Shown: positions 25,330-48,304, numbered from the stretch's first letter. The stretch is 64,000 nt of DNA from Candidatus Bathyarchaeia archaeon (GCA_049969855.1 JBMFOB010000005.1:1-64000), one strand, 5' to 3'. Translations and numbers: made by a program. Notes: generated by a model from the sequence alone, not told the origin.

Positions 25330-26763
25330 TTACTTTTTCCAGAAGAGATAAACTTTTGTTTGAGCCAAAAAACCAAGCGTCTTTAACGCTTTAGCCAAAC
25401 CCTCATCACTAAACCCTCTAATTTTCGCTATAAACTCTCCATGCGTTGGATAGGCTCCACCAGAAGCCATAAGCCGCTTCCTCACAGACGCTTCACGCTT
25501 AGAAAGCTTTTCCAAAATTTTTACAATTTTAGCCTTCCCAACACGCCTAATCATTAACAAATTCTGCTCCACACTTCCAAGCATGGCTGGATTAAAACCT
25601 AAAAGGTAAAGCCTATCCAAAGCCCACAAAACCCCTTGGCTTGGTTTGCTTTCAGCTATTTTTTGCATTCCAGCCCTTTCAAAAAATGGGTTATACCGTG
25701 CCATAACAGCCAAAGCCTCAACGTAGGGCGTTCCAGCTAAAGGCAACGTTTCACGCACGAGCTTTGCGCCTAAGCCTATTGTGCGATATTTTGGATGCAC
25801 AACAACCCGCGATATAACACTAACATCCCTCTGCAGTTCCGAAAAACTGCCCCTCCAAACCTTGCTTCGTCCAAAACAGAAGGGCGGCGGAAAACTGTAA
25901 ACAATAACTCCGCATAATTCGCTATCACGCTTCAAAACAAAAACCCTACGCGGAGGCGGACACCGATTTGAACGATAATGGAAAAGGCTTAAACGCTTAT
26001 AATCGCTAAAACTGCCCTCTTCAACACGCATCTCCCTCGTTAAGCTACATTCCTCAACTGGCTCATTCGCATAATAGTTCACAGTTATTTCCCTTCCAAA
26101 ACGCTTGTGAATATGCACAGAAGGCTTCAAATCCTCTAAAAGGTCTGTATGCGTAGTCGCAACAATAACCGCTTTGCCCATCAGTCTCGCAATTTTTTGA
26201 ATGTTAAAAGCCACAATCTTAGCCATATCACGGTCAAGAACGCTGCAAAACTCGTCGGCAAACCACCACTGCTTATTACTCTCCATAAGCTTAGCAATCT
26301 TGTAACGATACCTCTGCCCATCACTTAACTCGCTAAAACGTCTAACAAAAAGGAAGGCATCATTCAAACCAGCACGGTTCAAAAACTCTAAACCTTCACT
26401 GAAGTTTCTGCCAACCGTGTCGATTAAGGGCTTGTCTGGTTCTGGCTGGATTTCAGCCAAGTCGATAGCGCTATCGCCCAAATCTCGCCTCAAAGCCCTT
26501 AGCAAGACGCTTTTGCCAGAACCACTATCACCAGTAATGTAAACAATATCCCGCTCGCCAATCTTCAACTCAACATTATCGTAAACCACAAAACGCTTAT
26601 GCTCATCCAAACCCAAACCGAAAGCTTCAGCAACCGCTAAAGTGCGAGGTGTCGGCTGAGCAGCCGTTTCATAGGCAACGTTTATTATGAATTTTCCTTC
26701 TCGGGCATCATAACGCCTTTTAAAATGGCGAATCCTAAAAAACTCTGTTTTACGCGTTTTCAT
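25330..26763 (-). CDS. ABC-type ATPase fused to GNAT acetyltransferase (COG2401-like)
   Basis: GDSGSGKS, LSDGQRYR, FADEF and ATTH; C-terminal VVVHPKYRTIGLGAKLV acetyl-CoA motif. Confidence 0.88.
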   Translation of the reverse strand: MKTRKTEFFRIRHFKRRYDAREGKFIINVAYETAAQPTPRTLAVAEAFGLGLDEHKRFVVYDNVELKIGERDIVYITGDSGSGKSVLLRALRRDLGDSAIDLAEIQPEPDKPLIDTVGRNFSEGLEFLNRAGLNDAFLFVRRFSELSDGQRYRYKIAKLMESNKQWWFADEFCSVLDRDMAKIVAFNIQKIARLMGKAVIVATTHTDLLEDLKPSVHIHKRFGREITVNYYANEPVEECSLTREMRVEEGSFSDYKRLSLFHYRSNRCPPPRRVFVLKRDSELCGVIVYSFPPPFCFGRSKVWRGSFSELQRDVSVISRVVVHPKYRTIGLGAKLVRETLPLAGTPYVEALAVMARYNPFFERAGMQKIAESKPSQGVLWALDRLYLLGFNPAMLGSVEQNLLMIRRVGKAKIVKILEKLSKREASVRKRLMASGGAYPTHGEFIAKIRGFSDEGLAKALKTLGFLAQTKVYLFWKK

Positions 26764-28199
26764 CTTGACACGCCTAAAACTTGATGCTTCAACAATTTCT
26801 TCCTCAACCGCTCCAATTTCGCTTTACCCGCAGAAGCCAAACGTGGCAAAACCCAAAGTTTAGGAGCGCTCAGTCCTCTTGTGGCATATATGGCTAGGGC
26901 TAAACTCCAAAACCTGTCATCGTGAGCGCCTTCAGGATGATTGAATTTTATTTTACCTTCCTTTGTTAACTCGAAACGTTCAACATTTAATTCTGCAATC
27001 AAATCGCTGTCATATGGAATTTTAAGCCTCTTTTCTGTCATGCATTTTTTGAGCCATTCAGCCATTTTCTCCTTTGTTTCCTGCGTGAACTTTACACCTT
27101 CTGTTTGGCTTATTCCAGCGTTTACCATGTCTTCGGTTATGTAGTCGCCTACGCCTGTCATGTCAACAAGAACCTTCATTATTTTTTGCCATCTGTCGCA
27201 TAAGGTTTTTACATAGCCAATAACGCTTGCGTATGGAGTGTGTAGCGGAAAACGGTGCATGTGGATTAATTTTATAGAAGAATCTTCCATTTTCACTATG
27301 GCTAAGACGCTGTAATCCTGATGTTTGCCCAAGTCTAAACCAGCGTAAAACTCGCCCTTAACGGCTTGGTTAAAATCTGCATATTCGAGTTGGCTGTCAA
27401 TGCAGCTTGTGATTAAGGCTTGCGATAACCAAACGTTTTCGTCTTCAGCCCATTCCGCCTCCATTTCACGGCGCCAACGCCACGGGTCGCCTTCCAACTG
27501 CCTCTTAATCTTGTCTAAAATTTTCTTTTTTAATGGTCCTTTTGGCTCAACGGCATCTTGCCATGAAACGTGACTTTTTGCGAAGTCGCTGAAAGCTGGG
27601 TCATGCCAAATTTTGTAAAATATGGAATCCGTCGTCCAAGGTGTTGAACTGCAGATGAATTTTCCGTCTGTTGTGCCGAGCGTGAAAAGCACGGCATCAT
27701 ATAATTCCTCATCTTTTGCTATAAAATTCATTTCATCACAATAAACCAAATTTAATGTTGGACCGCGGATGGTTTCTGGATTGTTTGGAAAAGCCTCAAT
27801 TAGGCTGCCGTTGCTAAGTCTAACCATGGTGTGTAAAGGCTTTTCATAAAGGCTTTTGGGCAATTTCCTCAAAAAAGCATTGATTCTCCGTATAACAAGT
27901 TTGGTTTGACGCCAGCTTGGACCTACTACTCCTATGTAGTTTTTTGGGTTTTTGAGGGCATGCCATAAAAGTAGGGCTGCGATAGTGTGGCTTTTTCCAC
28001 TTTGGCGACACCATCTGGCAGCTACGAACTGGTTTTGTTCGAAAAGCCTTATGAGTTGTTGCTGGTAGGCTGTTGGTGTAAAGCCTAAAATTTTTGTGCA
28101 GAATTCAATTGGGTCTTGGGGGATTTGTATAATGGCACTTTGGACTTCAGCAAGGCGCTGTTCCAGTTTGTGTAGTTTTTGTTTTTGCTGCTGCTTCAT
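26760..28199 (-). CDS. terL: Terminase large subunit
   Basis: PTAYQ, CRQSGKS, IRG, LVYCDE and SSTP; nuclease GLDLG, D-x-TGVG and HDD. Confidence 0.95.
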   Translation of the reverse strand: MKQQQKQKLHKLEQRLAEVQSAIIQIPQDPIEFCTKILGFTPTAYQQQLIRLFEQNQFVAARWCRQSGKSHTIAALLLWHALKNPKNYIGVVGPSWRQTKLVIRRINAFLRKLPKSLYEKPLHTMVRLSNGSLIEAFPNNPETIRGPTLNLVYCDEMNFIAKDEELYDAVLFTLGTTDGKFICSSTPWTTDSIFYKIWHDPAFSDFAKSHVSWQDAVEPKGPLKKKILDKIKRQLEGDPWRWRREMEAEWAEDENVWLSQALITSCIDSQLEYADFNQAVKGEFYAGLDLGKHQDYSVLAIVKMEDSSIKLIHMHRFPLHTPYASVIGYVKTLCDRWQKIMKVLVDMTGVGDYITEDMVNAGISQTEGVKFTQETKEKMAEWLKKCMTEKRLKIPYDSDLIAELNVERFELTKEGKIKFNHPEGAHDDRFWSLALAIYATRGLSAPKLWVLPRLASAGKAKLERLRKKLLKHQVLGVSR

Positions 28200-28440
28200 T
28201 TACTAGTTCCTCCAGTTTTGCCAGATCTTGGTCAATTTGGTGTTCGTCGAAGCCTTTTGCTATGCTTTGGATGACTTGCGCTGTGTAGGCTGCCACTCGT
28301 GCCCAGGCTTGTCTTTGTTTTATGTTTAGGGTTTCCTTGTTTACGGTTGTTTCGCCTTTTGCCATGCTCACAGCGTTTTCAAAAATGGCTTGGAGGTCTT
28401 CTAGGATTTTCTCCCTAATCCTTTGGGTGTCAATCTTCAC
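28147..28440 (-). CDS. Putative terminase small subunit
   Basis: Helical ~100-aa ORF overlapping the 5' end of terL; positional inference. Confidence 0.5.
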   Translation of the reverse strand: MKIDTQRIREKILEDLQAIFENAVSMAKGETTVNKETLNIKQRQAWARVAAYTAQVIQSIAKGFDEHQIDQDLAKLEELVNEAAAKTKTTQTGTAPC

Positions 28441-28519
28441 TTTTTCCTTTAGTTGGGCGATTTTGCGGGTTATGAAAAATGGACGGGAAAATTTTGGTAT
28501 TTTCTCTACCCCCTCCCCT

Positions 28520-28750
28520 CTAGGTTTTTTGTGCTAGGAATATTCCGCTTACTGTGCCAGTTAAGCCCGTTATTGCGGCGAAGATTTCGCTGTTCCACCT
28601 GCCAAGAAAGGCCATGTGGACGATTTCTAAAGCGGAAAGGCATAGGGTCATGGCTATGGCGAATTTTACGCCGTAGACTAGGCGCGTTTCTGGCGGGATT
28701 TCGCCTCTGCGGGTTCTTCTTGTTAAAGCCTTTTTAATCCAGTCAGCCAT
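28520..28750 (-). CDS. Small two-TM membrane protein (holin-like)
   Basis: Basic N-terminus plus two hydrophobic helices, within the virion operon. Confidence 0.55.
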   Translation of the reverse strand: MADWIKKALTRRTRRGEIPPETRLVYGVKFAIAMTLCLSALEIVHMAFLGRWNSEIFAAITGLTGTVSGIFLAQKT

Positions 28751-29141
28751 GGTTTTTCACCGTTTTCTGTTTTTTCTTGCCACTAACTGTTGCGCGTTTG
28801 CCTCCAGCTAGAAAACTGTTGAGCAGCTGCTTAGCCTCTTCAGGTGAAACATGCGCTTTAGCTATTAGGGTTATGTTGGCTGTCCAAGCTGTTGGAACAG
28901 CCGTATAATCAATGTCGTATACGCCGTCGGCATAGCGGAAACTGTTTTGGGCTAGGATTATGTGCTTGTTTTTGGCTCCTAAAACGCCGAGGAAAATGCC
29001 CCAACTAGTAACAGGAACATCAATACCATTCAAACCACCGCCTAGGCTTTTGCCAATACTAGCATCAAACCATTCAACACGAACCAAATCACCCAAGCTT
29101 AAACCTTTAACTTGTTTACTAACCTCCTTCATCTTCATCAT
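28743..29141 (-). CDS. Hypothetical virus-type protein (VEWxDA motif)
   Basis: LVRVEWFDA...SWGIFLG; overlaps the next gene. Confidence 0.7.
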   Translation of the reverse strand: MMKMKEVSKQVKGLSLGDLVRVEWFDASIGKSLGGGLNGIDVPVTSWGIFLGVLGAKNKHIILAQNSFRYADGVYDIDYTAVPTAWTANITLIAKAHVSPEEAKQLLNSFLAGGKRATVSGKKKQKTVKNHG

Positions 29142-29225
29142 CAAACAAAACAAAAAGAAAAACCGAATATAAAGAACAGCGAAATTTATAAATTTATTAA
29201 TTTATTCCCAAAATTTTCGAATTAC

Positions 29226-29816
29226 TTACTTCTTTTCGGCAACGCTTTTAACTAGGTCAAGTATTTTTTTATGTTTCTTTCCTTTGCCAACTCCCTTGAC
29301 AAATTGGAGAAGTTCTGAAAACCTCTTTTCACCATCCCTTTTGTATATTTGAACGAAAATTTCAAGCATAGAACCTGAAAGATTCCACGGAAGGTTTCTG
29401 AAGCTTTCGCAGTACATCTTCATCTTCCTAGTAGTTGGTCTACCGATCCCACGTAACCTTCTAAATGGAAGTTCTTCTGTGGTTACACCATATCTGACTC
29501 TATCTTTAAATTCTTTAAAATCTGCTGGAACGCTTATACTTTTTTTGATTGCAAGACGTTCATAAACATTTAAAAGGTTAAAGAGTTCTTTTGCCACTTG
29601 CGGGCATCTACTTGCGTATACCTTGTACTTGGATTCTATATCTGCTAACTCTTGATTTTCCATCCAACCATAATAAACTGCATATGCCGAATACTCCGGA
29701 TCTCTTTGATCAGACACGGGCACGCCTTTTTTCTCATAAAAACTTGTTATTTCCTCTGATTTCTCTCGTGGATTTTTACCGAGACGAGCTCCTTCAAACA
29801 AACGCCTTTTTCTCAA
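29226..29816 (-). pseudogene. C-terminal fragment of a Hel308/Ski2-like helicase
   Basis: RVRYGVTTEELPFRRLRGIGRPTTRK matches the ratchet/HhH end of Hel308; no motor motifs present. Confidence 0.6.
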
Positions 29817-30126
29817 ATTTTTTGTCAGAAATTATTACGTCAACACTGTATGGCGTTTCCCCATCCCTAAAAGTGGCTATCCTATAGCCGGACTCTAAAG
29901 CGCGGTCAATTTCTGCTTCATCCACAACCAATCCAGCCTTACGCAAGGCATCAACAAGCTTTGCTTTACATGTATCATCAGAAACGTAAACTATAACATC
30001 AACATCCACAGTTGTCCGTGGAACACTATAAAAGCTGGCTGCCAAAGCGCCAGTAAAAGCATAATTTAATTCCGCCTTCTCAAAACCCTTTATGAGACGC
30101 TTAACAAAATCATAAAAAGCTTCCAA
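29794..30126 (-). pseudogene. Truncated nucleotidyltransferase toxin (MenT1/DUF6036-like)
   Basis: FTGALAASFYSVPRTTVDVDVIV motif; ends after ~110 aa, running into the helicase fragment. Confidence 0.65.
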
Positions 30127-30127
30127 A

Positions 30128-30328
30128 TTAAACGCCTCTTCTGCGCCAGCGTTTGCTCCACTCAAACCTTTCCCGCAGTTTCTCAATAAGCTCTTTATCG
30201 CTTATGTTTGGATTCTACGCTTTAATACCATCAGCGCAAACCCTCACGACAAAATCCGACATCCCAATTGCTAGCGTAACTTTCTCTTCTGGTTTAAGCC
30301 TTCCAAGCCTTTCTGCATCCTTATCCAC
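30128..30328 (-). pseudogene. Antitoxin-like (MenA1/Rv0078B-like) gene with internal TAG
   Basis: VDKDAERLGRLKPEEKVTLAIGMSDFVVRVCADGIKA*NPNISDKELIEKLRERF; stop at 30215-30217. Confidence 0.6.
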
Positions 30329-30366
30329 ACATGCACACCAAACCATAAATTAGGGCGATTGTTCCT

Positions 30367-30543
30367 TTAAAGCTTCAACCTTCTAATTAGACTTTTCACC
30401 TTCTCCTCATCTTTTAGGAAATCCTCTATTATAGCGTTTGCCACCACATAAATTCGCAAATCATTCAACAAAGCCAACTTCCTAATCTCCCTATGCAAGT
30501 CTTCACGAATTTCAACAACAGTCCTTCTAGCGCTTCTAACCAA
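30367..30543 (-). CDS. 58-aa ribbon-helix-helix protein
   Basis: Manual translation MVRSARRTVVEIREDLHREIRKLALLNDLRIYVVANAIIEDFLKDEEKVKSLIRRLKL; GGAGG upstream. Confidence 0.7.
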   Translation of the reverse strand: MVRSARRTVVEIREDLHREIRKLALLNDLRIYVVANAIIEDFLKDEEKVKSLIRRLKL

Positions 30544-30558
30544 AGCCTGTGCATCCTC

Positions 30559-31065
30559 CTAGCTGCCTTGGATTTGGATGGCTAAATCGCCCAAAATTAG
30601 AAACAGCCTTGTAACCTTCACTTCCGCTGGCTTTAATACGGCGACTTCTGCAAGCACATGCACTGCGGCTTCTGGGCTTATGCCGAACTCAGATTGGATT
30701 AGTGATGCCGCCGTTGCTTGAACTGCTGCGTCTACATAGATTTCGTAAATTCCCGCGTGGATTAACTCAACGAGAACATCTGCGAGGGGTTGAGTAACTG
30801 CGTTTTGGTTTATGTTAAAATTTGATTCTTGAGCGGTTACGCTTTGGCTTGCGGCAACAGCGTCTTTAACGATATTGTAAGTTGTTTCGCTAACAGGCGT
30901 GGCAAGCGATTGGCTTACAGCATCCACATATATTTCATAAACCTGCCCACCAGAAATTATGATTATTTTTGTTCCATCCTCAAGTAAAGCGTCTATTTTT
31001 CTGCGTCCCCACTCGTCTAAAATGGCGTTGAGCATTATGTCGCCGTATTCGCTGACGTTAACCAA
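30559..31065 (-). CDS. Putative tail fibre-associated protein with internal repeat
   Basis: YEIYVDA occurs twice; located at the end of the tail module. Confidence 0.55.
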   Translation of the reverse strand: MVNVSEYGDIMLNAILDEWGRRKIDALLEDGTKIIIISGGQVYEIYVDAVSQSLATPVSETTYNIVKDAVAASQSVTAQESNFNINQNAVTQPLADVLVELIHAGIYEIYVDAAVQATAASLIQSEFGISPEAAVHVLAEVAVLKPAEVKVTRLFLILGDLAIQIQGS

Positions 31066-31828
31066 ACAAGACGCCTCGGCACTTTATTTGTGTTGGAACT
31101 GGAAACCTGTAAACGCTCGGCGGACTCGTGCTTTTTGTGTTTACATATGCTGTGTTAAGGAGTGTGGCGTCGCCGTGTGCAACCCTAATTAAACCGTAAG
31201 GCTCCACAGCCGCCAAGAATGTGATGCCAGACAAGGTGAAGCCCGTGGATGTGTTGTTGTTATAATTAATTGACGTATGCCCATTATATACATAAGTGGC
31301 GCCCTGTGTGCCTGTAAGCCCTGCGCTGAAGTTTACAAATGTTGAGCTTCCCCCGCAAACTATCGTCACGTCCTTATGCAGTGGCGTTTTAAACAGTTTA
31401 ATGCGTGAAACGTGAACAGCAAAAGCATACCTATCAAGAATGCTGTCGCTAACTGAACTCCAAAGTTTTAGGGCTAAAACATCGCCAACCTGCACGTCAA
31501 GGAAGCATGCAGTGCAACTCCAATAATAATTGGCACTTACAGACGTGCTGCTGCTTGCAACGCTCTGACCGTTTTTTAACATCCTCCAGTAAAGCGTCCC
31601 AGCCGTCACAAATTGACCGCCAGCCAACACACGGGCAAGCCAAACCTTACTGAAAGGCTTAACATCAAATGTTGGAAGGTCGCTTTCCTGAACCGCATAA
31701 GCTACTTGCGGGTCTGTCGGCTCCGTTGTCGGCAAAGTTAATGGCGTGCCTAAAAGCGTTTCCCTTGGAGTCTGATAAGTAATATTCAAAGTTTTGAAGC
31801 TTGTAAACAAAGGTGTTAGCTTTGTCAT
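31058..31828 (-). CDS. Putative receptor-binding/fibre protein
   Basis: Thr/Ser/Tyr-rich beta-strand protein in the distal tail module. Confidence 0.55.
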   Translation of the reverse strand: MTKLTPLFTSFKTLNITYQTPRETLLGTPLTLPTTEPTDPQVAYAVQESDLPTFDVKPFSKVWLARVLAGGQFVTAGTLYWRMLKNGQSVASSSTSVSANYYWSCTACFLDVQVGDVLALKLWSSVSDSILDRYAFAVHVSRIKLFKTPLHKDVTIVCGGSSTFVNFSAGLTGTQGATYVYNGHTSINYNNNTSTGFTLSGITFLAAVEPYGLIRVAHGDATLLNTAYVNTKSTSPPSVYRFPVPTQIKCRGVLFG

Positions 31829-32115
31829 TTAGTCTGCACACCATCAAAGCCTATCAATTGTGCTGATGCTGTTGTATTTTTAACTCGGATGCAAATTGAG
31901 TTGGTCACGTGGAAAGAATACTTAGCATAAACGCCAGCACCAGCATCAGTGTCAAAGATTAGGCTGTTTGTGCCGTCATAAAGTTCCAGTTGAACATCGC
32001 TTGCATGATAAATGTTGTGAATTACCGCCTCAACACCAACCGCTGGCTGAATGTCCAAGTAAGCACCTGCCGCAATGCTTTGTAAACCGCTAAAAACATC
32101 TCCAACAGCCATCAT
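31825..32115 (-). CDS. Small beta-rich virion protein
   Basis: 96-aa ORF overlapping the downstream tail-module gene. Confidence 0.6.
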   Translation of the reverse strand: MMAVGDVFSGLQSIAAGAYLDIQPAVGVEAVIHNIYHASDVQLELYDGTNSLIFDTDAGAGVYAKYSFHVTNSICIRVKNTTASAQLIGFDGVQTK

Positions 32116-32126
32116 TTACCCTCCGT

Positions 32127-32603
32127 TTACGCTGGACGCTGGAATTTAGGCGTATAGTAAACTTTCACTTGATCGCCTGAAACCACGTTTTTTGTCGTGT
32201 AAGTGTCTCTGCAATACATTGTTCCGCCGCTGGAAGCATTAAACAAGCCGCATTCTTGCAATGCGTAAGTATTTGTTATGTTGAATGTTGCATCCATACT
32301 ACACTCGCCAGTGTTGGCGTCCTTACTGTATGTTCCCTGAACACGCATAACTTCAGCGAGTAAAGCCGTTTGTGTAGATGCGGGTGCTGTTCCATCAGTG
32401 CCAATAGCCACATAGTTAAAAACTGCTGGACGATTAGCGCTACCGTCAAAAGCTTGACCACACAAAGCATTAAGTCCGCCATCAACCACCAAATCTTCGA
32501 AGTCAATCAACCGTTCGTCTACGTCTATCAGTTTACCGTTCCGCCATATTTCAATGCGTCTGCCCATTCCAACTATTATTTTAGCTTTATTTTTCAAACT
32601 CAT
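32127..32603 (-). CDS. Tail fibre/baseplate-attachment-like protein
   Basis: LVVDGGLN...YVAIGTDGTAP...QTALLAEVMR...ECGLFNA..GTMY pattern typical of phage fibre N-terminal domains. Confidence 0.7.
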   Translation of the reverse strand: MSLKNKAKIIVGMGRRIEIWRNGKLIDVDERLIDFEDLVVDGGLNALCGQAFDGSANRPAVFNYVAIGTDGTAPASTQTALLAEVMRVQGTYSKDANTGECSMDATFNITNTYALQECGLFNASSGGTMYCRDTYTTKNVVSGDQVKVYYTPKFQRPA

Positions 32604-39657: not shown

Positions 39658-39752
39658 ACACCTCAAACCTCAAACAGAAAATGGAAAGAAGCAAAATTTA
39701 AACAATTTTCACGATAAAAAAGCATGTTTTTTGTCTGTTTTTGAAAAAATGC

Positions 39753-40655
39753 TTAATTCATATACTTTTTAGAATAATAGCTTTTGAAGATGACGACAGC
39801 AGCGGCGATAATTGTTAGGATTGTCAGTATTAGCAGTGTTGGATTTGGTCCGTATTCTGGAATCACTTCTTTAATGTAGAAAGTGTGTAGAACATCTGCC
39901 AGTAGGTTCACTGCCAAGTTAAGCGATTCTCCGCATCTGTTTCTGAATGCCGGATTGCTCCAGTCATAGTTTTGGTTCATCCAAACACATGTGAGGTCTC
40001 CGTCCACATCGAATGTTGTGTCATACGCAAGCATCAGCGTGGCATTGTAAGCTGAAATTTCAGTTAATTCACCATCAAATGATAGGAAACTGTTGAATTC
40101 ATCATTGTAGCTGTTTGTTCGTGTATTAACATAATTTTCATAACTGCTGTGGAGGGTTTTGTTTTCGCTTCCCCAATCCGTTTTGCTACCCATGACATGG
40201 GCAAAAACTGCGACGCCAACAATGTAATGGCTCATGACGCCGAGCCTTTTAGCCGCGTTAACCATGTCACCAGCTTTTACATATGCAACAGCAGCCTCAT
40301 ATTCTTCTTCAGCCCTAACCGCAGCATCATCCTCCTGCAAAGAACCGTTAGCAAAATAGTAAACGTGATGCTTACTCGTATCGCCTATTCCGTCTGGAGC
40401 TTGGTTGTTGTCGGGCAGTTCTGTGCCATACAAATAGGCAGCAAGGTTGTCAAGGATGAATTGTTTCTCTTCTGATGGCAAATAGTCTAAAGCGTGTTCT
40501 GCAATCCAGTCATGCGTTCCATATTTTGGGTTTGAAGGGTCATCGCTGTAACCGCCATTACTCCACCCGAAAACCAAGGTAAAGTTGACAGCTGCCACTG
40601 TTAATCCGCTCAAGAAAGTGCATATCCAAAAAAGAACAATGCACTTCTTTATCAT
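39753..40655 (-). CDS. Zinc-dependent phospholipase C/P1 nuclease-family secreted protein with PEF-CTERM-like tail
   Basis: Signal peptide, WS..., THDWIA, PD, HH, SHY and HSSYE; IPEY plus TM helix plus basic tail. Confidence 0.8.
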   Translation of the reverse strand: MIKKCIVLFWICTFLSGLTVAAVNFTLVFGWSNGGYSDDPSNPKYGTHDWIAEHALDYLPSEEKQFILDNLAAYLYGTELPDNNQAPDGIGDTSKHHVYYFANGSLQEDDAAVRAEEEYEAAVAYVKAGDMVNAAKRLGVMSHYIVGVAVFAHVMGSKTDWGSENKTLHSSYENYVNTRTNSYNDEFNSFLSFDGELTEISAYNATLMLAYDTTFDVDGDLTCVWMNQNYDWSNPAFRNRCGESLNLAVNLLADVLHTFYIKEVIPEYGPNPTLLILTILTIIAAAVVIFKSYYSKKYMN

Positions 40656-40838
40656 AATGCTCTGTAATCATATTGTTGTTGTCAAGTTAAAAATTTGCTT
40701 ACATGAGTTTAAGGCATCAAAGTCTTTTAACAGAATAGACGTTAAACGTAGCATTGCTTGTGCTTTAATTAGAGAATAAGGTTTAATAATGTCTATACTA
40801 ACCACTTTTGTTTAAAATGGTTAGCGGAGTGAGATGGT

Positions 40839-41051
40839 ATGGTTAATGAGGGAAAAGGACGCTTGTTCAAAAGGAAAGACGGAAAATACTTGATTTATTT
40901 ACCGCTTGATTTGGCCCAAGACAGCATGTTTCCATTCAAAGAGTATAAGAAAACTAAGAGGGGCACGGATTCCATAGCTGTGAAAGTGAGTTTCAAGCTT
41001 GGAGACGATAAACTAATCATTGAGAAGTGGCAGGAACCAAAACAGCAATAA
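40839..41051 (+). CDS. AbrB/SpoVT-like small protein
   Basis: GRLFKRKDGKYLIYLPLDLA...VKVSF...KLIIE swapped-hairpin pattern. Confidence 0.6.
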   Translation: MVNEGKGRLFKRKDGKYLIYLPLDLAQDSMFPFKEYKKTKRGTDSIAVKVSFKLGDDKLIIEKWQEPKQQ

Positions 41052-41078
41052 AATAAAAAATTGGGTGCTTTGCTGTCT

Positions 41079-42746
41079 TTAAGGCTTGCTAAGTTTTGTT
41101 TTTCTTTTGCGAATTACTACTGCTGATAGTGTGGATGCGGCAAGTATTGGAAGTATTAGCTGTAGCGAGAATTCTGGAATCACATGATATCTGTATTCTT
41201 GTCCCATCTCTTGGGTTGTGATTGTATTGTTGAAGTTGTCTTCGGCTATAATTATGTAGGTTACGTTTGTGCAGTATGGAAAAGCGGGTATTGTGCCATT
41301 GTAGAGGTTTCCTTCAACGTTGTCCATGACAACTGTTCCATTCCATGTTCCAGTGCTGTTAGTGTAAGTGTAGTTTAGCGTTACCTGTTTTACTCCGCTA
41401 AGGTCGTCGGTAACATTAGCGTAAACCATAACCTCATCTTCTGGATAAACGCTGTCGTTGACTGGCTGCTGATGCACATTCTCTATCACAGGCGGAGTGT
41501 TATCCTCTATTGTTTGGAAAACGTAAAGGCTATCATAACCGGGACCAGCAACTACAGTTATGATGCCGTCTCCAGACATGGAAACCAATGGGCTAGGTTG
41601 GGGCAAGGAAAAGTTTGCTATCATAGTGCCATCAGACTTGAAAAAGTAAGCCGTATTATTGGATTCATCTGGAGCTTGAGCAGCTGCAGCTATTAGGCCG
41701 CCATTACCGCTTATAGCAACATCCAATATTACTTCACCTTCACGTCTTGTCCAGTTTTCAACTTCATTATAGCCAGAAAGTTCCCTCGCATTAGCCCAAA
41801 AATGCAAGCCGCATGGACCCGCTGGGGCGGTGCCAGCTATAACTTCGTCGCCATTATAGCTCATATCCACACAAAGGAACGCCACATTTCTAGTCCATGT
41901 AGGGTCTGGTTCTCCAGAAAGGTTTGTGGCGTCTGCCCAATAGTAAAGAGTCTCTGGACCAGGAATTGCAGTCACTGCGTCTACTGCGACAACGGAGTAG
42001 CCATCATCAGATACAGCCAAATCTATTATTGGAGCAGTTATTGAACTCCAAGAAACCCACAGGGGATTGTGGGTTCCGCTGGCAGTGGTTGCATCTTTAT
42101 AAAAGACAACAAAGCCATTAGTGAAGTTGCTCCCGCCTGCAGCGACATATTCACCATTCGGCGATATTTTTACAGCGCGAAAGTCTTCTACGAGGAAACC
42201 TGTCAACCAAGTTTCGCTTTCAGCAGAGCCCGACCTTGTTGTGCAGTCAGCAAAGTAATATAGGGTTATGCCTGTTCCACTCACAACCACATAGTCTCCA
42301 TCATAAGACATGTCTAAAGTGCCTCTCTCAACTGCTCCTCCGAGGTCTCTGCTTGTCCATGTTGGGGCTGAGCGTTCGCCAGTTGTTGCCCGTGAATTAT
42401 TAAAGTAGCTTAAATATCCGCTGTCGTCGCCTGTAACCACGTATTCGCCGTCTCCAGATATGGCAACAGAAAGGAACGTTGTTCCAGAATACCACCATTT
42501 AGGAGTTGAAATGTTCCACTCAAAATAGTACAAGCCCGTATCATTCACAGCAGCTATATAATTGCCATCCGCTGAAACTGCCACATCATATACACTCATA
42601 GAATTGTTCCAAAGCATCACTATTCCATAAATCTTTGAAGGGTCTACGCCGTCAGGCGCTTTAACTTCAACAGCCTTAAACCCAACCATCAGCACAGCAA
42701 AGAGCAAAGCAAATAGGCTTAGAACCGAAACGAATTTTCTCTTCAT
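41079..42746 (-). CDS. WD40-like beta-propeller surface protein with PEF-CTERM
   Basis: Signal peptide; repeated VAISxDGxYVV blades; DNTPPVI Ig-like domain; IPEF-TM-basic tail. Confidence 0.85.
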   Translation of the reverse strand: MKRKFVSVLSLFALLFAVLMVGFKAVEVKAPDGVDPSKIYGIVMLWNNSMSVYDVAVSADGNYIAAVNDTGLYYFEWNISTPKWWYSGTTFLSVAISGDGEYVVTGDDSGYLSYFNNSRATTGERSAPTWTSRDLGGAVERGTLDMSYDGDYVVVSGTGITLYYFADCTTRSGSAESETWLTGFLVEDFRAVKISPNGEYVAAGGSNFTNGFVVFYKDATTASGTHNPLWVSWSSITAPIIDLAVSDDGYSVVAVDAVTAIPGPETLYYWADATNLSGEPDPTWTRNVAFLCVDMSYNGDEVIAGTAPAGPCGLHFWANARELSGYNEVENWTRREGEVILDVAISGNGGLIAAAAQAPDESNNTAYFFKSDGTMIANFSLPQPSPLVSMSGDGIITVVAGPGYDSLYVFQTIEDNTPPVIENVHQQPVNDSVYPEDEVMVYANVTDDLSGVKQVTLNYTYTNSTGTWNGTVVMDNVEGNLYNGTIPAFPYCTNVTYIIIAEDNFNNTITTQEMGQEYRYHVIPEFSLQLILPILAASTLSAVVIRKRKTKLSKP

Positions 42747-42827: not shown

Positions 42828-43067
42828 TCACGCTTTAGCTGTGTCAACAAGTTTCTGCAACCAAACCGTAATCGCCGTAGGACCTACAAGCGCAGTGTAA
42901 ACGTCAAAGGTCATGCCAGCCATATCCAGCCCCAAAGCCGAAAAAGCTCCAATAGCCGCAGTCCGCAGAAACTTCTTCCAACTGAAAGGCTTATCCTGCG
43001 CTGCATAACCCAAAAAAGCATAGATTAAGGCTGCACAAATCCCCAAACCTATGTTTAACACGTTCAC
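42828..43067 (-). CDS. Small membrane protein (holin-like)
   Basis: 79 aa with 2-3 hydrophobic segments; strong GGAGGTGA SD; follows the portal. Confidence 0.6.
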   Translation of the reverse strand: MNVLNIGLGICAALIYAFLGYAAQDKPFSWKKFLRTAAIGAFSALGLDMAGMTFDVYTALVGPTAITVWLQKLVDTAKA

Positions 43068-43170
43068 TTTTTCACCTCCCTTTTTAAGCTTTTAATTTTG
43101 GTTTCCCGCCTCCAGGAAAGCGCATAGGCCACTTGACCCATGAGGAGAAAGGAGAAAACCAAGACAGAAG

Positions 43171-44388
43171 CTATAGCGTTGCACTCTCCATGAAGGTTTC
43201 GGGCTTCTCCCAAAGCTGCCAACCAAACTTTACAGCGTTCTTGCGAAACTCTTCCGTGCGAATTAAACCCAACTCAGCAGCCTTCAGCATATCAGCCATA
43301 ACAATTTCAGGCGCTTTCTCGCTTCCCCAGTTTAAACGAACCTGAGCCTCGGCTGGGTTAAAGCCGGCTTGAGCTAAAACTGGATTGAAGATTTCGCTTT
43401 CAACTTGCCGCTTAACATAACGCTGAATAGGCTTGATGAGCATGCTTTGAAGGTCTAAGGCCGCCTTTGCAGAAGCCTCCGTAAAGCCAGGAGTGCTGAA
43501 AAGGCGTGGAAGTGGGGTTTCGCATCCCAAATAGAACTGGTTTATTATATGTTCAATGTAATATTCAAAGCGGGCGCGGGGGTCAAGCGTCAACGGTTTT
43601 ATGTCGCCTTTCCCGCTGTAGAAAAGCCAAGCGCCTTCTTCGCTTCGACTTTTTATGGCTCTCTCAAACTTTTGAATTGTGGCTTCATCAGCCTTTTCCA
43701 GCAAAGCCAAAACATCTGGACCCGCATACTTTTCAAAAATTTTCGGCATTACCCGCTCTATTTTTGCTTTCATCCAAGCATATGCTGGACGCCGATCAGA
43801 CTGGAACGTAAGCGAGTGCAGGAGCACTTGTAAAACGCCCGTTCCGAAACCTGAAAAGCCAAGAGGGTTTATTCTCCAGTGGATTATGGCTTCTGGTCTT
43901 AGGCTTTCGCCACCGTAACTTTGCCTAAGCTTATAGCCTTCAGTTTTGTAGGGAACTTTTAATGCGCCATCCTGTATGTAGTTTTGTTCAATGCGTTCCA
44001 CAGCATCCACTGGAAGCCTATGCAGTTCTGTTAGGCGTTCAGGAGTGATTTTAAGCCAAAACTCGTTTCCACAAGCAATTAAAATGCGCGCCATATCACA
44101 GAGAAGCGCATCCAAATTAACATTTTCATTAAACTTGTCCACAACCTTTTTCGCTTCTTCAGCCCTCTCATACGCTTCATTAACAGTCGTGTAAAAGCCC
44201 ATGCCAACGGCAGAAGCCGCCAACAAATCAACACTTGCCTTACATGTTGGGTCTCGCTCATAAAGTTTCACGACATCACTGAGCGGAATGCTTGGCGTTT
44301 CATAAACGACTGCAGACTGCGGAGAAGCGCATCCACTTTTGGCTTTAATGGAGAAGGCTTCAGTTAGGCGTTTCAAAATTCTGTTCAC
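43171..44388 (-). CDS. Portal protein
   Basis: LYERDPTCKASVD, ACGNEFW, IIHWRINP..FGTG and FTEASAK; 405 aa. Confidence 0.88.
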   Translation of the reverse strand: MNRILKRLTEAFSIKAKSGCASPQSAVVYETPSIPLSDVVKLYERDPTCKASVDLLAASAVGMGFYTTVNEAYERAEEAKKVVDKFNENVNLDALLCDMARILIACGNEFWLKITPERLTELHRLPVDAVERIEQNYIQDGALKVPYKTEGYKLRQSYGGESLRPEAIIHWRINPLGFSGFGTGVLQVLLHSLTFQSDRRPAYAWMKAKIERVMPKIFEKYAGPDVLALLEKADEATIQKFERAIKSRSEEGAWLFYSGKGDIKPLTLDPRARFEYYIEHIINQFYLGCETPLPRLFSTPGFTEASAKAALDLQSMLIKPIQRYVKRQVESEIFNPVLAQAGFNPAEAQVRLNWGSEKAPEIVMADMLKAAELGLIRTEEFRKNAVKFGWQLWEKPETFMESATL

Positions 44389-44633
44389 TCCAAACCCTCC
44401 AAAAGTTTAACGCCTTTCTCTGTAATCACGTATGGCGCCCGATGCTTCTGCCCACTCTTTTGCACATAACCATTCTGAACAAGATAATGAAATATGCCTT
44501 CAAAAGTGGCGTGGGTCCCAAACTTTCTAACAGTTCTCTTCTCAAGCTCAGTTCTGCAAAGAGATTGCCTACTAAGCTCTTTTAATACGGTTTTGGCTAG
44601 ATTTAATCTATCACGTAAATTTCTCATGTGCAA
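44385..44633 (-). CDS. Small winged-helix protein
   Basis: YLVQNGYVQK...YVITEKGVKLL wHTH signature. Confidence 0.75.
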   Translation of the reverse strand: MHMRNLRDRLNLAKTVLKELSRQSLCRTELEKRTVRKFGTHATFEGIFHYLVQNGYVQKSGQKHRAPYVITEKGVKLLEGLE

Positions 44634-44878
44634 ACAACCTCCACAGGTTTTTTATCGCTAAAAAATGGGGGAGAATGACGAGGGCAAACCATTAGAATCG
44701 CAAAGTCCCTTTTGGCATCAGCCGCATAAGTTTTAGGCGCTAAGTCTGGAGTGTAAGGCTCCATTTCAGCCCCGCATATTGGGCAATGCCTATAGCAGTC
44801 GCAGACAACAACGTCGCCCTTACGGTTTGAATAATGCGTTTTCCCGCAGGATGGGCATTTTCCTTCAAACTTTAACAT
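44624..44878 (-). CDS. Small zinc-finger protein
   Basis: CPSC, CDC..HCPIC and CPRH. Confidence 0.75.
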   Translation of the reverse strand: MLKFEGKCPSCGKTHYSNRKGDVVVCDCYRHCPICGAEMEPYTPDLAPKTYAADAKRDFAILMVCPRHSPPFFSDKKPVEVVCT

Positions 44879-44907
44879 TTTAACCTAGCCCAAATGCGCT
44901 TTTACGG

Positions 44908-45861
44908 TTATAGCGAAGTGCTAATGTTGACCATTTTTGCAACAGCCTTGCTTCTCAAAACGCCTAAGCCAAACCTTGTTGTTGCTCTAACGCCATACTT
45001 GCCACTTTTCGGGTCTTCCCAATCCTCAACAGTTATATCTCTTCGCAATAGCATGACCGCAGCCACGCGGGTGTCTATGGCGTAGGCTGTTCCATTAGGC
45101 ACTAAAGTGCTGGCTAAAACCTTCATGCCAAGGACGCTGCCGATAACGCCGCGCTCCAAATCCACTTGTTCCGCTGGCAAGTATTGGGCGTGGATGAACT
45201 TGTCGTCGCTTAAAAGCTGATGCAGTTGGATTTCGTTAACGGCTAAGACTGTTGGGCGCCAGTTTTCCTCTCTAACGGCGTTATGAAGTTTTAGCACTCC
45301 AGACCAGTTTATGGCGTTTCCACCATTGTCTATTGGAGCCCCACCAGCCAAATCAGCATTTGCAATAGCCCCATACAATTCCAATATCTTGTTTGTCTCC
45401 GCCTCGCCTAAGGCTCTTCCAACCTTTTCAGTCATGCTGTCCATAACATTCCATGTAGCGTCTTCCAAGAATTCCCTTGTCCACTCTTCAGAGGCTTCAG
45501 CAATAATATTTGTGTAAACGTCAACTGTGCTGATTTTCTTCCCACTAAGTCTTGTGTAGGCGCCTTCAGCATAACGATATGCAATAGCCGTCTCATCCAA
45601 TGGAAATCTTTCCATGGTTTCCGTTGTTGGTCTAACAATTATAATGTCTCGACCTATCATTTCAGGGTTAGCAGCCTCAACGAGAGTGTCATGCATTCGC
45701 CCCAAAGCGCCAACCATGTCGCTGAACAACTGTTCTTTAACGCCAACTTCGCAGTAACGCTTGAGGAAGGGATGCGTAACAGCCTTATGCTTTAATTCTT
45801 CCATGAGTTGCCTAAATTCTGGGTCGGAGTGCATGAGACTTTCAAAAAGTTTTGGTTTCAT
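44908..45861 (-). CDS. Major capsid protein (HK97 fold)
   Basis: TREFLEDAT, GSVLGMKVLASTLVPNGTAY and RFGLGVLRSKAV. Confidence 0.92.
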   Translation of the reverse strand: MKPKLFESLMHSDPEFRQLMEELKHKAVTHPFLKRYCEVGVKEQLFSDMVGALGRMHDTLVEAANPEMIGRDIIIVRPTTETMERFPLDETAIAYRYAEGAYTRLSGKKISTVDVYTNIIAEASEEWTREFLEDATWNVMDSMTEKVGRALGEAETNKILELYGAIANADLAGGAPIDNGGNAINWSGVLKLHNAVREENWRPTVLAVNEIQLHQLLSDDKFIHAQYLPAEQVDLERGVIGSVLGMKVLASTLVPNGTAYAIDTRVAAVMLLRRDITVEDWEDPKSGKYGVRATTRFGLGVLRSKAVAKMVNISTSL

Positions 45862-45867
45862 GCCGTT

Positions 45868-46299
45868 TCACCGTTCCACATAAATGAAGATTAGGTCGTC
45901 TGCTGCTGAAGCAGATTCAAGGGCTATTCCAAGTTTTCGGGCATAGTAAATTGTGTATTGAGCTGTTCCGCCTTCGTTTACAGACTGGTCTGTTAACTGA
46001 AGAATTCTTTTTGAGGCGTCAGCTCCATAAACCGCTTTTCCACGAGTTACGGCTCCGCCAACCTTCACCTTAACCCTTCCGCTAATAAGAACTGGACAAG
46101 GTTCGCCAGATGCAACACTTTTAAGTGCTATGCCAATGCAGTCTTGGGTTGCTGTTGCTGGGCTAACCTTGTCATCAGCGCTTAAGTAAACTGGGTCTCC
46201 TTTGGTTATGGCTGCATTAGCCACGAAAGTTTCAGTGATAGCGTTTGGGTCGTCTGTTTCGCCGATGCTCATCCAAGTTTTTCCAGTGTTATCTGCCAT
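45868..46299 (-). CDS. Capsid decoration/cement protein (DUF2190-like)
   Basis: AAITKGDPV, IGIAL...SGRVKV and LGIALESASAADDLI. Confidence 0.8.
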   Translation of the reverse strand: MADNTGKTWMSIGETDDPNAITETFVANAAITKGDPVYLSADDKVSPATATQDCIGIALKSVASGEPCPVLISGRVKVKVGGAVTRGKAVYGADASKRILQLTDQSVNEGGTAQYTIYYARKLGIALESASAADDLIFIYVER

Positions 46300-46373
46300 A
46301 AAAATCACTCCTCAAATCCATTATTGTTTCAGCCAGTTCATCCTGGCTTACTCCAAAAATTATACGTCTACTT

Positions 46374-47999
46374 TTAACCATGCGCTTTCACCCTCTTACG
46401 AAGGTTTAAGATGATGCCTCGGAGTTCTTGGCAAAGCCTCTGCGGACCCAAACCCCAACTTCTCTCAACCATTGGGCTTGGCAAAACATTCTGAATCATG
46501 CCAACGGCTTCATCAACCGAAATCATAGCTTTAGAATTCTTTACAAAACCTTCAGCAACTTTACCAGCATCCTCGGCTTTTATAGCAAACTCTTTTTCAA
46601 GCCTTTCAACGCGGTTCGTTAAAGCATTAAGGGCATCCTCAATTTCTCCCAAAACGTCTTCCATATTTGCTATGAGCTCATCCATTGTTGGCTCCAAAGA
46701 AAACGCAAAATCTGCATTGGCTGTTTTGTCTTCGCCTTCCTGTTCCAGAAGCTTCTCTTCTTCAGCTGAAGCGCCTACACCAAGTTTCTTTTTGTGAGTT
46801 GCTAAATGCTTCATGGCTTGCTGCTTATAAGCGGCGGGAATTTCGCTTTGAGGCAACCGTGCGTTAGCGTTTCTTAGGTGGGGCAAGTCGACGGTGCCGT
46901 CTGCATTGTGATGCGGAAACTTTCTGATGACTTTGCCGTTTTCTTTGTAAACTATGGCGAAGGCTGAGTCTGGAAGCGCATTAACGTATTTGCGAGTCCA
47001 AACACGCTCAAAAAATCTTTTACCACCCATTTTTCCACGCTCTTTCAGCGGCGTCTGCAAAGGCGCAGAAGCACCTGCTGGAGCCATATAATGCGGATGG
47101 AGAAGAAGCCAGTCGCGAATCTTGCCCTCATCCCACATCTTCTCTTTAGCAAAAAATATGCTCTGAACCCTCTGAGTTTCAGGCTCAGCCCGTAATCTTC
47201 CAATAAGGGCTAAAACACCGTTTTCCTTGTCAAGCCAAACAGTGCTGAAATGTTCAGGCATAAAGGCTGAAAAATCCTGACAGAAGCCAAGGATATATTC
47301 ACCAGAAATTATGGGTTCAAACTCCTGCTCCTTAACGATTAATCTTTCTAAAATTTGAATGTTAGTTTCTGGAACGCCCGGCACAGCCACAAGGCTTAGT
47401 TCTGCATCATGTAAGCCGTGCGGAATCTTTCCATCAACAACATCGATTGTTTCATAGTCCGCTCCGACGCTTACGTGTCCAATTAAGCCTTTTCTTATTT
47501 TCTCAGCTATTTCATCATCATAAATTTCAGCTTCATACCAAAGATTAGTGCCATCCCATTCGGCTTTAACTATTTTTCCAACAGCGTTAGGCACAGCCAC
47601 ATGCTCAACATAAACTGGTGCGGAAACAAGCTTCTGGGCGAAGGCTTGCAGTTCTTCAAGCGTGTAAATGTTAAAGTTTCTGCTCATGCCAGCCCTAAGC
47701 GCAATGCCGCGAATTTTTAAGGGTTTGTCGACGATTTTCTCTAAAACCTTGATGGGTAAAGATGCTTCGTTTTTCCGATGTTTTTCAAACCATGCCTTAG
47801 CCTTTTCAATGGTCCAGCCCTTAGAAATTTCAAACAAGTAACTTTGAACATTCATTTTATCTTTGCCCTTTGGTTTGCCGACAACAGCCTTAATCCCCTC
47901 ACTCTCGTTCAGCGTTATCGTGCGTAAACTGTTCGGCTCGAACTCCTCTGGGCTGCGATGCCCACTGCGGATGTATTGATCAGTTATTTCCCAAGGCAA
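46374..47999 (-). CDS. Multidomain prohead protease/scaffold
   Basis: SRNFNIY, PVYVEH, GHVSVG and ELSLVAVPG protease core; acidic coiled-coil tail; TTG start at 47999. Confidence 0.82.
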   Translation of the reverse strand: MPWEITDQYIRSGHRSPEEFEPNSLRTITLNESEGIKAVVGKPKGKDKMNVQSYLFEISKGWTIEKAKAWFEKHRKNEASLPIKVLEKIVDKPLKIRGIALRAGMSRNFNIYTLEELQAFAQKLVSAPVYVEHVAVPNAVGKIVKAEWDGTNLWYEAEIYDDEIAEKIRKGLIGHVSVGADYETIDVVDGKIPHGLHDAELSLVAVPGVPETNIQILERLIVKEQEFEPIISGEYILGFCQDFSAFMPEHFSTVWLDKENGVLALIGRLRAEPETQRVQSIFFAKEKMWDEGKIRDWLLLHPHYMAPAGASAPLQTPLKERGKMGGKRFFERVWTRKYVNALPDSAFAIVYKENGKVIRKFPHHNADGTVDLPHLRNANARLPQSEIPAAYKQQAMKHLATHKKKLGVGASAEEEKLLEQEGEDKTANADFAFSLEPTMDELIANMEDVLGEIEDALNALTNRVERLEKEFAIKAEDAGKVAEGFVKNSKAMISVDEAVGMIQNVLPSPMVERSWGLGPQRLCQELRGIILNLRKRVKAHG

Positions 48000-48115
48000 G
48001 CTTAACCGCCTCACACAACTAACACCAAACTAATATACGAAGAAAATGAAAAGGCGAATTGTACAACCCAAAAGCCCACATAAGCACCAACAAGAGGGGC
48101 TAAGGGAGTGGTTGA

Positions 48116-48304
48116 ATGCCTAGAAAATGCATAGTGAAAGTTGTTCTAAGCAAGGAGCAGAAGGAAATCTTAAGCGAACTTGCGAGGAGACTTGGAACAA
48201 GCGAAAGCGAAACATTACGGATGGCTTTGATGGATTACGCAAAAGAACTTAGCCTCATAAGGGAAAGGGTGCACAGGTTGGGCAACCAATTAAAAATTGT
48301 CTAA
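48116..48304 (+). CDS. CopG/RHH regulator divergent from the virion operon
   Basis: VKVVLSKEQKEILSELARRLGTSESETLRMAL. Confidence 0.8.
   Translation: MPRKCIVKVVLSKEQKEILSELARRLGTSESETLRMALMDYAKELSLIRERVHRLGNQLKIV

Follow-up and report, generated by a model that had tools for sequence, protein, structure and literature searches.

The 64,000-nucleotide stretch of DNA from Candidatus Bathyarchaeia archaeon analysed here (GCA_049969855.1 JBMFOB010000005.1:1-64000; hereafter the window) carries, at ~24.0-48.3 kb, a ~24.3-kb element of head, tail and packaging genes that we read, with a probability of about 0.55, as a vertically inherited and selected cluster resembling a gene transfer agent (GTA), that is, a viriform, anciently endogenised from a tailed virus. 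In an ancestor of a family-level clade the element became lodged at a single site of the chromosome, flanked by an MscL gene and by a block of two-component and NrdRD genes, and it has since been inherited vertically under purifying selection, even where it is split in two loci. That it actually transfers genes would be a further step, held with somewhat less than even confidence. Other copies are referred to by genome (G), contig (C) and locus (L) numbers.

Borders of the cluster and absence of integration functions

Thirty tightly packed open reading frames (ORFs), all on the minus strand, run from position 48014 down to 25330 of the window, where a preliminary description of this DNA had placed the cluster. 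The extent given there, 25330-48304, held except at its left limit: the element reaches ~24000 and includes a 147-amino-acid (aa) gene (24059-24502, plus strand) and an 82-aa gene (24512-24760, minus strand), both of which travel with it in other genomes, MscL being a host gene. The right border was placed at 48304-48428 because G018, a relative without the element, has the same flank genes (o110-o106-histidine kinase-response regulator-NrdR-NrdD) with neither the ribbon-helix-helix (RHH) regulator gene nor the head gene. Among four sequencing runs examined as assembled Logan contigs, three yielded public contigs spanning this border, and an artefact confined to the assembly of a single genome therefore does not account for the junction; an assembly chimera was rejected given that the three runs are independent. 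Neither a circular junction nor an excision joint was seen in these contigs, on which the two borders were examined one at a time. Both flanks are chromosomal, as had been proposed, with an IleRS-type synthetase, three tRNAs and MscL on the left and a PAS-GAF histidine kinase, a response regulator, NrdR and NrdD on the right, all cellular. The base composition of the element tracks that of each host with a GC offset of only about +2%; in the window, GC is 0.441 in the cluster versus 0.417-0.418 in the flanks (0.409 in the 1.28-Mb genome), and GC at third codon positions (GC3) is 0.421 versus 0.406.

The preliminary description had reported no integrase, no repeat of the three nearby tRNA 3' ends at the right border and no replication gene, and three scans agreed with it. 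Matches to the integrase family PF00589 numbered zero on the window's contig (C5) and six elsewhere in the genome; no recombinase, MCM, primase, polymerase or Orc1 family was found by Pfam among the 30 cluster and 18 flank ORFs (13-58 kb); and the two borders had no repeat in common longer than 12 nt, which is at chance level (shuffle mean 11, maximum 15). As a positive control, the same approach recovered an integrase and a 22-nt attachment (att) repeat in a related provirus, G026:C37. PF00589 was likewise absent from the vicinity of the cluster in the nine syntenic genomes searched (those with the cluster at the same site): the contig held no match in G000 and G030, and the nearest match was >40 kb away in G001, G012 and G025 and >120 kb away in G061-G064. 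The integrase, att direct repeats and replication or lysogeny module by which a temperate Caudoviricetes provirus is recognised were not found in these scans, and the only regulators in the cluster were small RHH, winged helix-turn-helix (wHTH) and zinc-ribbon genes.

Distribution and the shared chromosomal site

A search for the gene of the major capsid protein (MCP) was positive in 28 of 61 related genomes, the window's own included, and in 17 of the 36 genomes of the host family, with protein identities of 95% within the genus, 63-91% in other genera (full-length copies) and 31-49% outside the family but within the order. With one genome scanned per species, 76 MCP loci were counted across genomes, all under record titles of Bathyarchaeia or Bathyarchaeota except for two Thermoproteota, and IMG/VR held 51 MCP loci. 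The site was constant across genera: the head module abutted RHH-o110-o106-histidine kinase-response regulator-NrdR-NrdD in G001, G004, G012, G025, G030, G033 and G036, the same right-hand neighbours recurred at many of the 76 genome loci, and on the left the 147-aa gene (o147) and MscL were common to G001, G025 and G030, where the left end is visible. When 144 full-length MCP rows were scored for this arrangement, 61 were syntenic, 31 were non-syntenic and 52 were too truncated to tell.

Several IMG/VR loci that are catalogued as viral (e.g. L037, L045, L046 and L066) carry the histidine kinase, response regulator, NrdR and NrdD genes beside the head module; because host flank genes adjoin the head module, such contigs are fragments of the chromosomal locus. 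A broken NrdD homologue was seen at G009:C51:68216-70005 (66% identity, with four of its several stops in the main match).

Phylogeny and co-divergence with the host

After removal of identical MCP sequences, all 51 distinct syntenic MCPs fell in one clade (SH-aLRT 99.7 for 77 rows in IQ-TREE; support of 99 for 124 rows in FastTree) and thus have a single origin; four non-syntenic MCPs, still accompanied by the RHH gene, nested within this clade, and the 22 others lay outside it. Repeated site-specific integration at a hot spot was rejected as an explanation, since it needs an integrase and att repeats and would not yield one syntenic clade. For 14 taxa, a tree of the element (cement, MCP and portal) shared nine of 11 splits with a tree of the host flank (NrdD, NrdR and response regulator), both conflicts being at weakly supported nodes, and the two sets of distances were correlated with a Mantel r of 0.90 that none of 2000 permutations reached (slope 1.22, zero intercept). 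In view of the linkage between flank markers and element, we also compared MCP with IleRS, which lies on another contig in most of the compared genomes; identities to the window's proteins were again correlated (Spearman 0.82, n = 12 syntenic copies, the points not being independent), and the syntenic clade extended to hosts in which IleRS identity to the window's protein is as low as 69-71%.

Selection and the split cluster

Across 29 cluster genes compared between the window and G001, a member of the same genus, the ratio of nonsynonymous to synonymous divergence (dN/dS) was 0.04-0.33 at near-saturated dS (0.4-2.7), similar to that of the host flanks (0.04-0.27 at dS 0.54-1.03). In intact copies the tail, baseplate and fibre genes were as constrained as the head genes, with dN/dS of 0.05-0.17. 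The comparative checks put forward in the preliminary description that were run here, namely wide presence, conserved gene order, trees congruent with that of the host and low dN/dS, all came out in favour of domestication.

In the closed Bathy-6 genome G061 and in G062 the cluster is divided. A module of two small ORFs (o136 and o97), the large terminase gene (TerL) and an ATPase-GNAT fusion gene is inverted and lies beyond the response regulator gene, ~21-22 kb from the rest (G061:C1 ~1.43-1.49 Mb; G062:C1 ~1.19-1.24 Mb), so that the whole spans ~46 kb. The intervening DNA is cellular (GHMP kinase, AIR-synthase-like, GH5 cellulase, Zn-ADH and MscS genes); in G061 it also contains a gene for a tubulin-like protein (PF13809) and metabolic genes. 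Because the arrangement is common to both genomes, the split predates the divergence of the two species, and all genes in both pieces were open, with dN/dS of 0.04-0.34 at dS 0.27-1.9 (TerL 0.077; MCP 0.049). Such upkeep would fit a host-owned, multi-locus particle system and not a provirus that must leave in one piece. The accessible text of PMC11697101 reports a 46.8-kb VirSorter provirus in the Bathy-6 closed genome; since no PF00589 match of that genome comes closer to the cluster than 124 kb, this provirus is probably a different element.

Integrating relatives, eroded copies and alternative readings

A close homologue does occur as a complete provirus, an outcome that the preliminary description had named as speaking against domestication. 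In G026:C37 (~240.2-273.6 kb; L032-L034), a 22-nt stretch from the end of tRNA-Pro(ggg) is directly repeated on either side of a complete 33.3-kb provirus, which carries a tyrosine integrase gene beside the tRNA-Pro, an N6/N4 DNA methylase, a UvrD/PD-(D/E)XK helicase-nuclease and a wHTH-HEAT protein; its MCP is 74% identical to that of the window, but it lies outside the syntenic clade. Integrases also adjoin copies in G052:C1 and on one IMG/VR contig, and related elements co-occur within genomes (six MCP matches in G026; five ATPase-GNAT matches in G062). A further set of relatives, L054, L056, L058, L059, L064 and L076 from IMG/VR and L124 from a genome, is tail-less, with a head module followed by o136-o97-TerL-ATPase/GNAT, and in gene content resembles capsid-forming satellites; L054, L056, L058 and L059 form, together with L063, an MCP clade of their own.

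Several observations weigh against a selected, GTA-like cluster. The element is known here from sequence alone, and the host-tree genes are linked to it, so that co-transfer with the flanks would also yield congruent trees. The MCP was not found in 19 of the 36 family genomes, several of them 97-100% complete, and in G029 MscL lies 2.5 kb from NrdR with nothing between them. Only five of the 13 syntenic copies read at full length were fully intact (the window, G001, G064, G061 and G062). One stop was present in the ATPase-GNAT gene of G030, stops were present in TerL and the baseplate-like gene of G025, TerL and ATPase-GNAT were truncated in G063, and G065 was riddled with stops; G012, G036 and G026:C102 had no tail genes, the latter two had no terminase either, and G007 held only a fragment of the cluster. 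The patchy distribution that the preliminary description had regarded as contrary evidence is thus partly present, together with many eroded copies. Even in the otherwise intact copy at G064:C17 (L190, ~6.3-13.4 kb), inserted genes separate the terminase module from the tail genes; they encode a type I restriction-modification system (N6 methylase and S subunit), an IS240-type DDE transposase and a Schlafen/AlbA_2 protein.

Erosion of this kind would be expected of a grounded defective provirus in slow, functionless decay, of which the intact copies had merely not yet been hit; the stops, truncations or deletions in eight of the 13 copies, the complete loss in several related genomes and the fact that the nearest outside relatives are ordinary proviruses all agree with it. 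We consider this reading improbable, however, because dN/dS of 0.04-0.34 at dS ~0.3-2.7, obtained in four independent pairs, requires selection, and because ~30 ORFs are still open in both the window and G001 after dS of ~0.8.

The tail-less copies pose a different difficulty. Loss of the tube and tail is common to G012:C1 (~334-372 kb; L017-L019) and its sister L090; no tube gene was found anywhere in G012 (98% complete), in which the cluster is interrupted by ~28 kb of cellular-type genes (AsnC/MarR regulators, KaiC-like ATPases, PKD and CarboxypepD_reg proteins). Between G012 and L090 the head genes show dN/dS of 0.03-0.08 (MCP 0.026 at dS 0.79), and the TerL and ATPase-GNAT ORFs of this lineage are still open. 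Selected heads without tails do not fit a pure transfer-agent model, as a transfer agent should need a tail. They would fit exaptation for another host function, for example capsid and terminase proteins that interfere with the assembly of infecting related viruses, and head modules do persist in several tail-less copies. Such a role appears very improbable, since the equal constraint on tail, baseplate and fibre genes in intact copies points to a complete particle, and no defence-system family was found among the cluster ORFs in a general Pfam scan (no dedicated PADLOC search was made).

Two further points concern exchange and capsid size. A distant TerL allele, with 33-37% identity to that of the window, occurs in G012, L106, G025 and G065, which belong to different subclades; it sits between the conserved o136 and ATPase-GNAT genes and contains stops in two of the four copies. 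This scatter implies horizontal replacement or old polymorphism, so the locus is not strictly clonal. In addition, because the G026:C37 provirus has the same head genes and measures 33.3 kb, the capsid may hold the whole 24-kb cluster, in which case the element would lack one attribute of GTAs. Both points are accommodated by a selfish transmissible element without an integrase of its own that is packaged in situ with its flanks, or with help from a related virus that bears an integrase, and re-enters related cells through homologous recombination of the flanks. Such an element would account for the same site, the lack of integrase and att repeats, the purifying selection and the congruence with linked flanks; a capsid sized for the 33.3-kb relative could take 24 kb plus flanks, the scattered TerL allele indicates DNA exchange at the locus, active-looking related elements co-occur in G026 and G062, and the tail-less head-plus-terminase relatives have the look of satellites. 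We nevertheless regard it as unlikely. In G061 and G062 the cluster extends over ~46 kb with cellular genes inside it and both pieces still show dN/dS of 0.04-0.34, MCP identity also tracks the mostly unlinked IleRS, and a first headful taken from the outward-pointing terminase module would be expected to miss the structural genes.

The preliminary description had read the cluster as a host-domesticated particle that would package chromosomal DNA. Its domestication half is supported by the site, gene order, trees and dN/dS, and the provirus relative and the patchiness count in part against it.

Under the GTA-like reading, the operon would be switched on in a few cells by a signal from the host or one controlled by the RHH and wHTH regulators, and HK97-type heads would be built. 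Headful packaging from the unexcised chromosome would follow, carried out by the T4-type terminase jointly with the ATPase-GNAT protein and the small ORFs upstream, after which tails would be attached and a virion-borne glycan-acting enzyme would help to pass the DNA on to related cells. With the terminase module at the left end and facing outward from the structural genes, packaging in situ would chiefly take host DNA to the left of the cluster, a speculative mode that would be similar to lateral transduction. In its fullest form, which we advance tentatively, the proposal is that the element is the first sequence-defined archaeal GTA, independently domesticated, inherited vertically across a family-level clade and able to package DNA of the chromosome, possibly unidirectionally, from a locus that is not excised.

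Gene content

Labels were checked against Pfam and PHROGs for the 30 cluster and 18 flank ORFs, and the features of the element are listed in Table 1. An HK97-type (Duplodnaviria) module is present, with MCP and TerL above their cut-offs and the portal below its Pfam cut-off.

Table 1. Genes of the element, ordered by position in the window.
Position	Strand	Feature	Evidence and remarks
24059..24502	+	147-aa conserved gene, function not assigned	No Pfam match; left-end marker
24512..24760	-	82-aa conserved small gene	80% identity in G001, dN/dS 0.26; present in G036, G063
25330..26763	-	P-loop (ABC-type) ATPase-GNAT acetyltransferase fusion	PF00005 6.9e-10, PF00583 3.5e-6
26760..28199	-	TerL, T4-type	PF03237 4.7e-17, PF17289 4.1e-5; dN/dS 0.067 vs G001
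28147..29153	-	Two small conserved ORFs, 97 aa and 136 aa	Upstream of TerL; no family match
29226..32115	-	Variable distal-tail region, ORFs of 196, 130, 168, 256 and 96 aa	No family match
32127..32603	-	Fibre-like protein, 158 aa	phrog_5417 1.1e-16, phrog_4176 (tail fiber) 2.3e-8, weak PF23140
to 33089	-	Two small ORFs, 79 and 85 aa, after fibre-like gene	
33073..33963	-	Baseplate-like protein, 296 aa	Weak YQBQ-like PF24032 9.8e-5, below cut-off
up to 35205	-	Two conserved tail ORFs, 208 and 181 aa	With baseplate-like gene in nearly all tailed relatives
35202..35573	-	HK97 gp10-like tail-completion protein, 123 aa	PF04883 4.9e-10, phrog_5 2.8e-21
up to 36093	-	157-aa conserved ORF beside gp10-like gene	
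36093..36956	-	Tail tube	PF18906 1.2e-14, phrog_290 4.9e-16; dN/dS 0.062
36953..37918	-	321-aa beta-sandwich virion protein, possibly tail- or baseplate-like	AlphaFold2 and Foldseek
37915..39303	-	462-aa core gene, (alpha/alpha)6 glycan-acting enzyme-like	PF06662 exactly at cut-off
39304..39666	-	120-aa conserved ORF	No family match; in almost all tailed relatives
39753..42746	-	Accessory genes: Zn-dependent phospholipase-C-like (300 aa), WD40/DUF7743 (555 aa)	PF00882 9.7e-10, PF24893 1e-6
42828..43067	-	79-aa conserved ORF following portal gene	78-96% identity in many relatives
43171..44388	-	Portal (weak assignment)	PF04860 2.3e-7, 30.7 bits, below cut-off of 39.1; phrog_12 4.3e-7
44385..44878	-	Winged-helix protein (82 aa) and zinc-ribbon-like protein (84 aa)	PF14947 6.6e-5, weak zinc-ribbon matches
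44908..45861	-	HK97-fold MCP	PF05065 5.4e-8, 33 bits vs cut-off of 24.2; phrog_267 2.7e-17; dN/dS 0.040
45868..46308	-	Capsid cement/decoration protein	PF09956 1.5e-13, phrog_673 2.1e-17
46374..48014	-	First head gene, 546 aa	No Pfam match
48116..48304	+	RHH (CopG-type) regulator	PF01402 6.8e-6; divergent from head operon; right-end marker

The family matches back the decoration protein, HK97 MCP, tail tube, gp10-like, fibre and TerL labels of the preliminary description. Its portal label agrees with phrog_12 and with gene position, on which a weak assignment can be based, the Pfam match being below its cut-off, and the gene is strongly constrained (dN/dS 0.036 between G061 and G062). The labels protease, adaptor, closure, terminator, chaperone, tape-measure protein and hub found no family support, the sole hint being the YQBQ-like match of the 296-aa protein, and Pfam and PHROGs recognised no tape-measure gene among the cluster ORFs. 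The gene that had been called the small terminase subunit (TerS) is instead the ATPase-GNAT fusion; it lies invariably directly downstream of TerL in syntenic and non-syntenic copies (dN/dS 0.107), and its nearest Atlas clusters are 48-60% viral, others being from Planctomycetota. The 97- and 136-aa ORFs accompany TerL always, including in the split loci of G061 and G062, and are by their position candidates for the small terminase. Lastly, a C5-epimerase-like gene had been counted among host-type inserts, and this 462-aa gene proved to be a core gene of the family; the phospholipase-C-like and WD40-like genes are accessory, their presence varying among relatives.

At the right end, the RHH gene and the first head gene occur together, both in syntenic copies and in non-syntenic ones. 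The 546-aa product of this head gene, of which the N-terminal ~325 aa are conserved, the middle is variable and the C-terminus is helical, gave a poor AlphaFold2 model (pLDDT 56.9) and may be a protease-scaffold fusion. The winged-helix and zinc-ribbon-like genes between MCP and portal are kept in most relatives, and the 120-aa ORF is a candidate head-tail connector on the basis of its position. The 462-aa protein, which is weakly similar to the GH127, GH88 and C5-epimerase families and whose nearest Atlas clusters are 62-73% viral, is encoded in nearly all relatives, the integrase-bearing provirus included, and is probably a virion-borne envelope-degrading enzyme. An AlphaFold2 model of the 321-aa protein built from 35 sequences (pLDDT 90.4, pTM 0.84) had as its best Foldseek matches baseplate chains of phage phi812 (E 1e-6, with a TM score of only 0.37) and a tail chain of Haloferax tailed virus 1, a weak indication of a tail- or baseplate-like role; a sheath was considered and rejected.

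Genes at 33073..35205 had dN/dS of 0.07-0.14. The distal-tail region is patchily conserved among relatives, and the insertions of G064 and the inversion breakpoint of G061 and G062 fall between it and the terminase module. At the left end, the 147-aa gene is 92% identical in G001 (dN/dS 0.074) and forms the end of the element in G001, G030, G036 and G025; in L093-L102 its neighbours are the RHH gene on one side and the first head gene on the other, and the non-syntenic loci L057 and L080 have it as well. A 142-aa ORF that overlaps it (23816-24244, minus strand) was discarded as spurious, its counterparts in G001 and G030 being full of stops.

In the left flank, the third tRNA (22938-23031, 94 nt), to which ARAGORN gave an odd four-letter anticodon and which Rfam scored as a tRNA at 59 bits, probably contains an intron. 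Further left are a caspase-like peptidase C14 gene (17287-18135) and a DUF4184/Zn-phospholipase-C-like gene (15327-15827), the latter of the same Pfam family as the accessory phospholipase-C-like gene of the element. No CRISPR array turned up when the window's genome was scanned by k-mers.

Comparison with known systems

The cluster of RcGTA (Rhodogtaviriformidae, Alphaproteobacteria) spans ~15 kb, compared with ~24 kb for that of Bathyarchaeia, and the two differ in origin, which is independent, and in host domain. Both are endogenised head-tail-terminase clusters without integration or replication genes; the Bathyarchaeia cluster differs further in that it keeps RHH, wHTH, zinc-ribbon and ATPase-GNAT genes of its own, its head capacity may exceed its size, and ~60% of its fully examined copies are eroded. 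VTA of Methanococcus voltae packages small fragments of host DNA; to our knowledge, archaeal GTAs are known essentially from this one transduction phenotype, to which no defined gene cluster has been tied. The host of VTA is a methanogen (Euryarchaeota) and not a member of the Bathyarchaeia.

Capsid-forming phage-inducible chromosomal islands (cf-PICIs) are mobile, have an integrase and a replication module, and carry head and packaging genes only, as do the tail-less relatives and the G012-type copies. PBSX-like defective prophages are chromosomally fixed particle makers, and the 296-aa protein of the cluster weakly matches the YqbQ family. Among the integrase-bearing proviruses of the same structural family, that of G026:C37 has the same order of head, tail and packaging modules, ATPase-GNAT included, with an MCP at 74% identity; it differs in having an integrase, a 22-nt att repeat, a methylase, a helicase-nuclease and ~14 kb of further genes. 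Fuxivirus and Kunpengvirus, compared by description only, are Bathyarchaeia Caudoviricetes with HK97 MCP, portal, TerL and tail tube; as described in the accessible portion of PMC10848311, the former has a complete 32-kb genome with Cas4 and the latter has an integrase, MCM, PolB and Cas4.

The accessible text of PMC9662315 gives as attributes of GTAs an endogenised genome, often in several loci; vertical inheritance congruent with the host; a head too small for the agent's own genome; the packaging of random host DNA; and delivery to cells. RcGTA is described there as vertically inherited and co-diversifying with its host, with more than one locus in some genomes. VTA is the sole archaeal GTA named in the literature consulted, and Bertani 1999 is among the references of that paper. 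The Bathyarchaeia element is endogenised, having no integrase, att repeat or replication gene and occupying the same site, with two loci in G061 and G062. It has co-diversified vertically with its hosts, as evidenced by monophyly, nine of 11 shared splits and the Mantel r of 0.90, with the caveats of linked flank markers and a scattered TerL allele. With regard to head capacity, the 33.3-kb relative is larger than the 24.3-kb cluster, and the gene span in G061 and G062 is ~46 kb. Judged from its genes, the element is a strong candidate for a GTA-like system. We found no description of a GTA or of a chromosome-fixed particle cluster in Bathyarchaeia in the literature searched, which took in text from PMC10848311, PMC11705971, PMC11697101, PMC13573593 and PMC9662315 (subscription journals lay outside the search).

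Implications

If the GTA-like reading is true, a defined, widespread and selected cluster would provide a concrete genetic handle on the biology of archaeal GTAs. Bathyarchaeia are among the most abundant archaeal groups in sediments, and horizontal gene flow would become testable in these uncultured, globally abundant organisms; Bathy-6 enrichment cultures and a closed genome, which carries the split cluster, exist according to the accessible text of PMC11697101. As a practical warning, IMG/VR lists pieces of this chromosomal locus as viral genomes. The family forms a natural series that leads from an integrating provirus to a fixed intact cluster and on to split, tail-less and remnant copies, and in few systems is the domestication of a virus so completely displayed.

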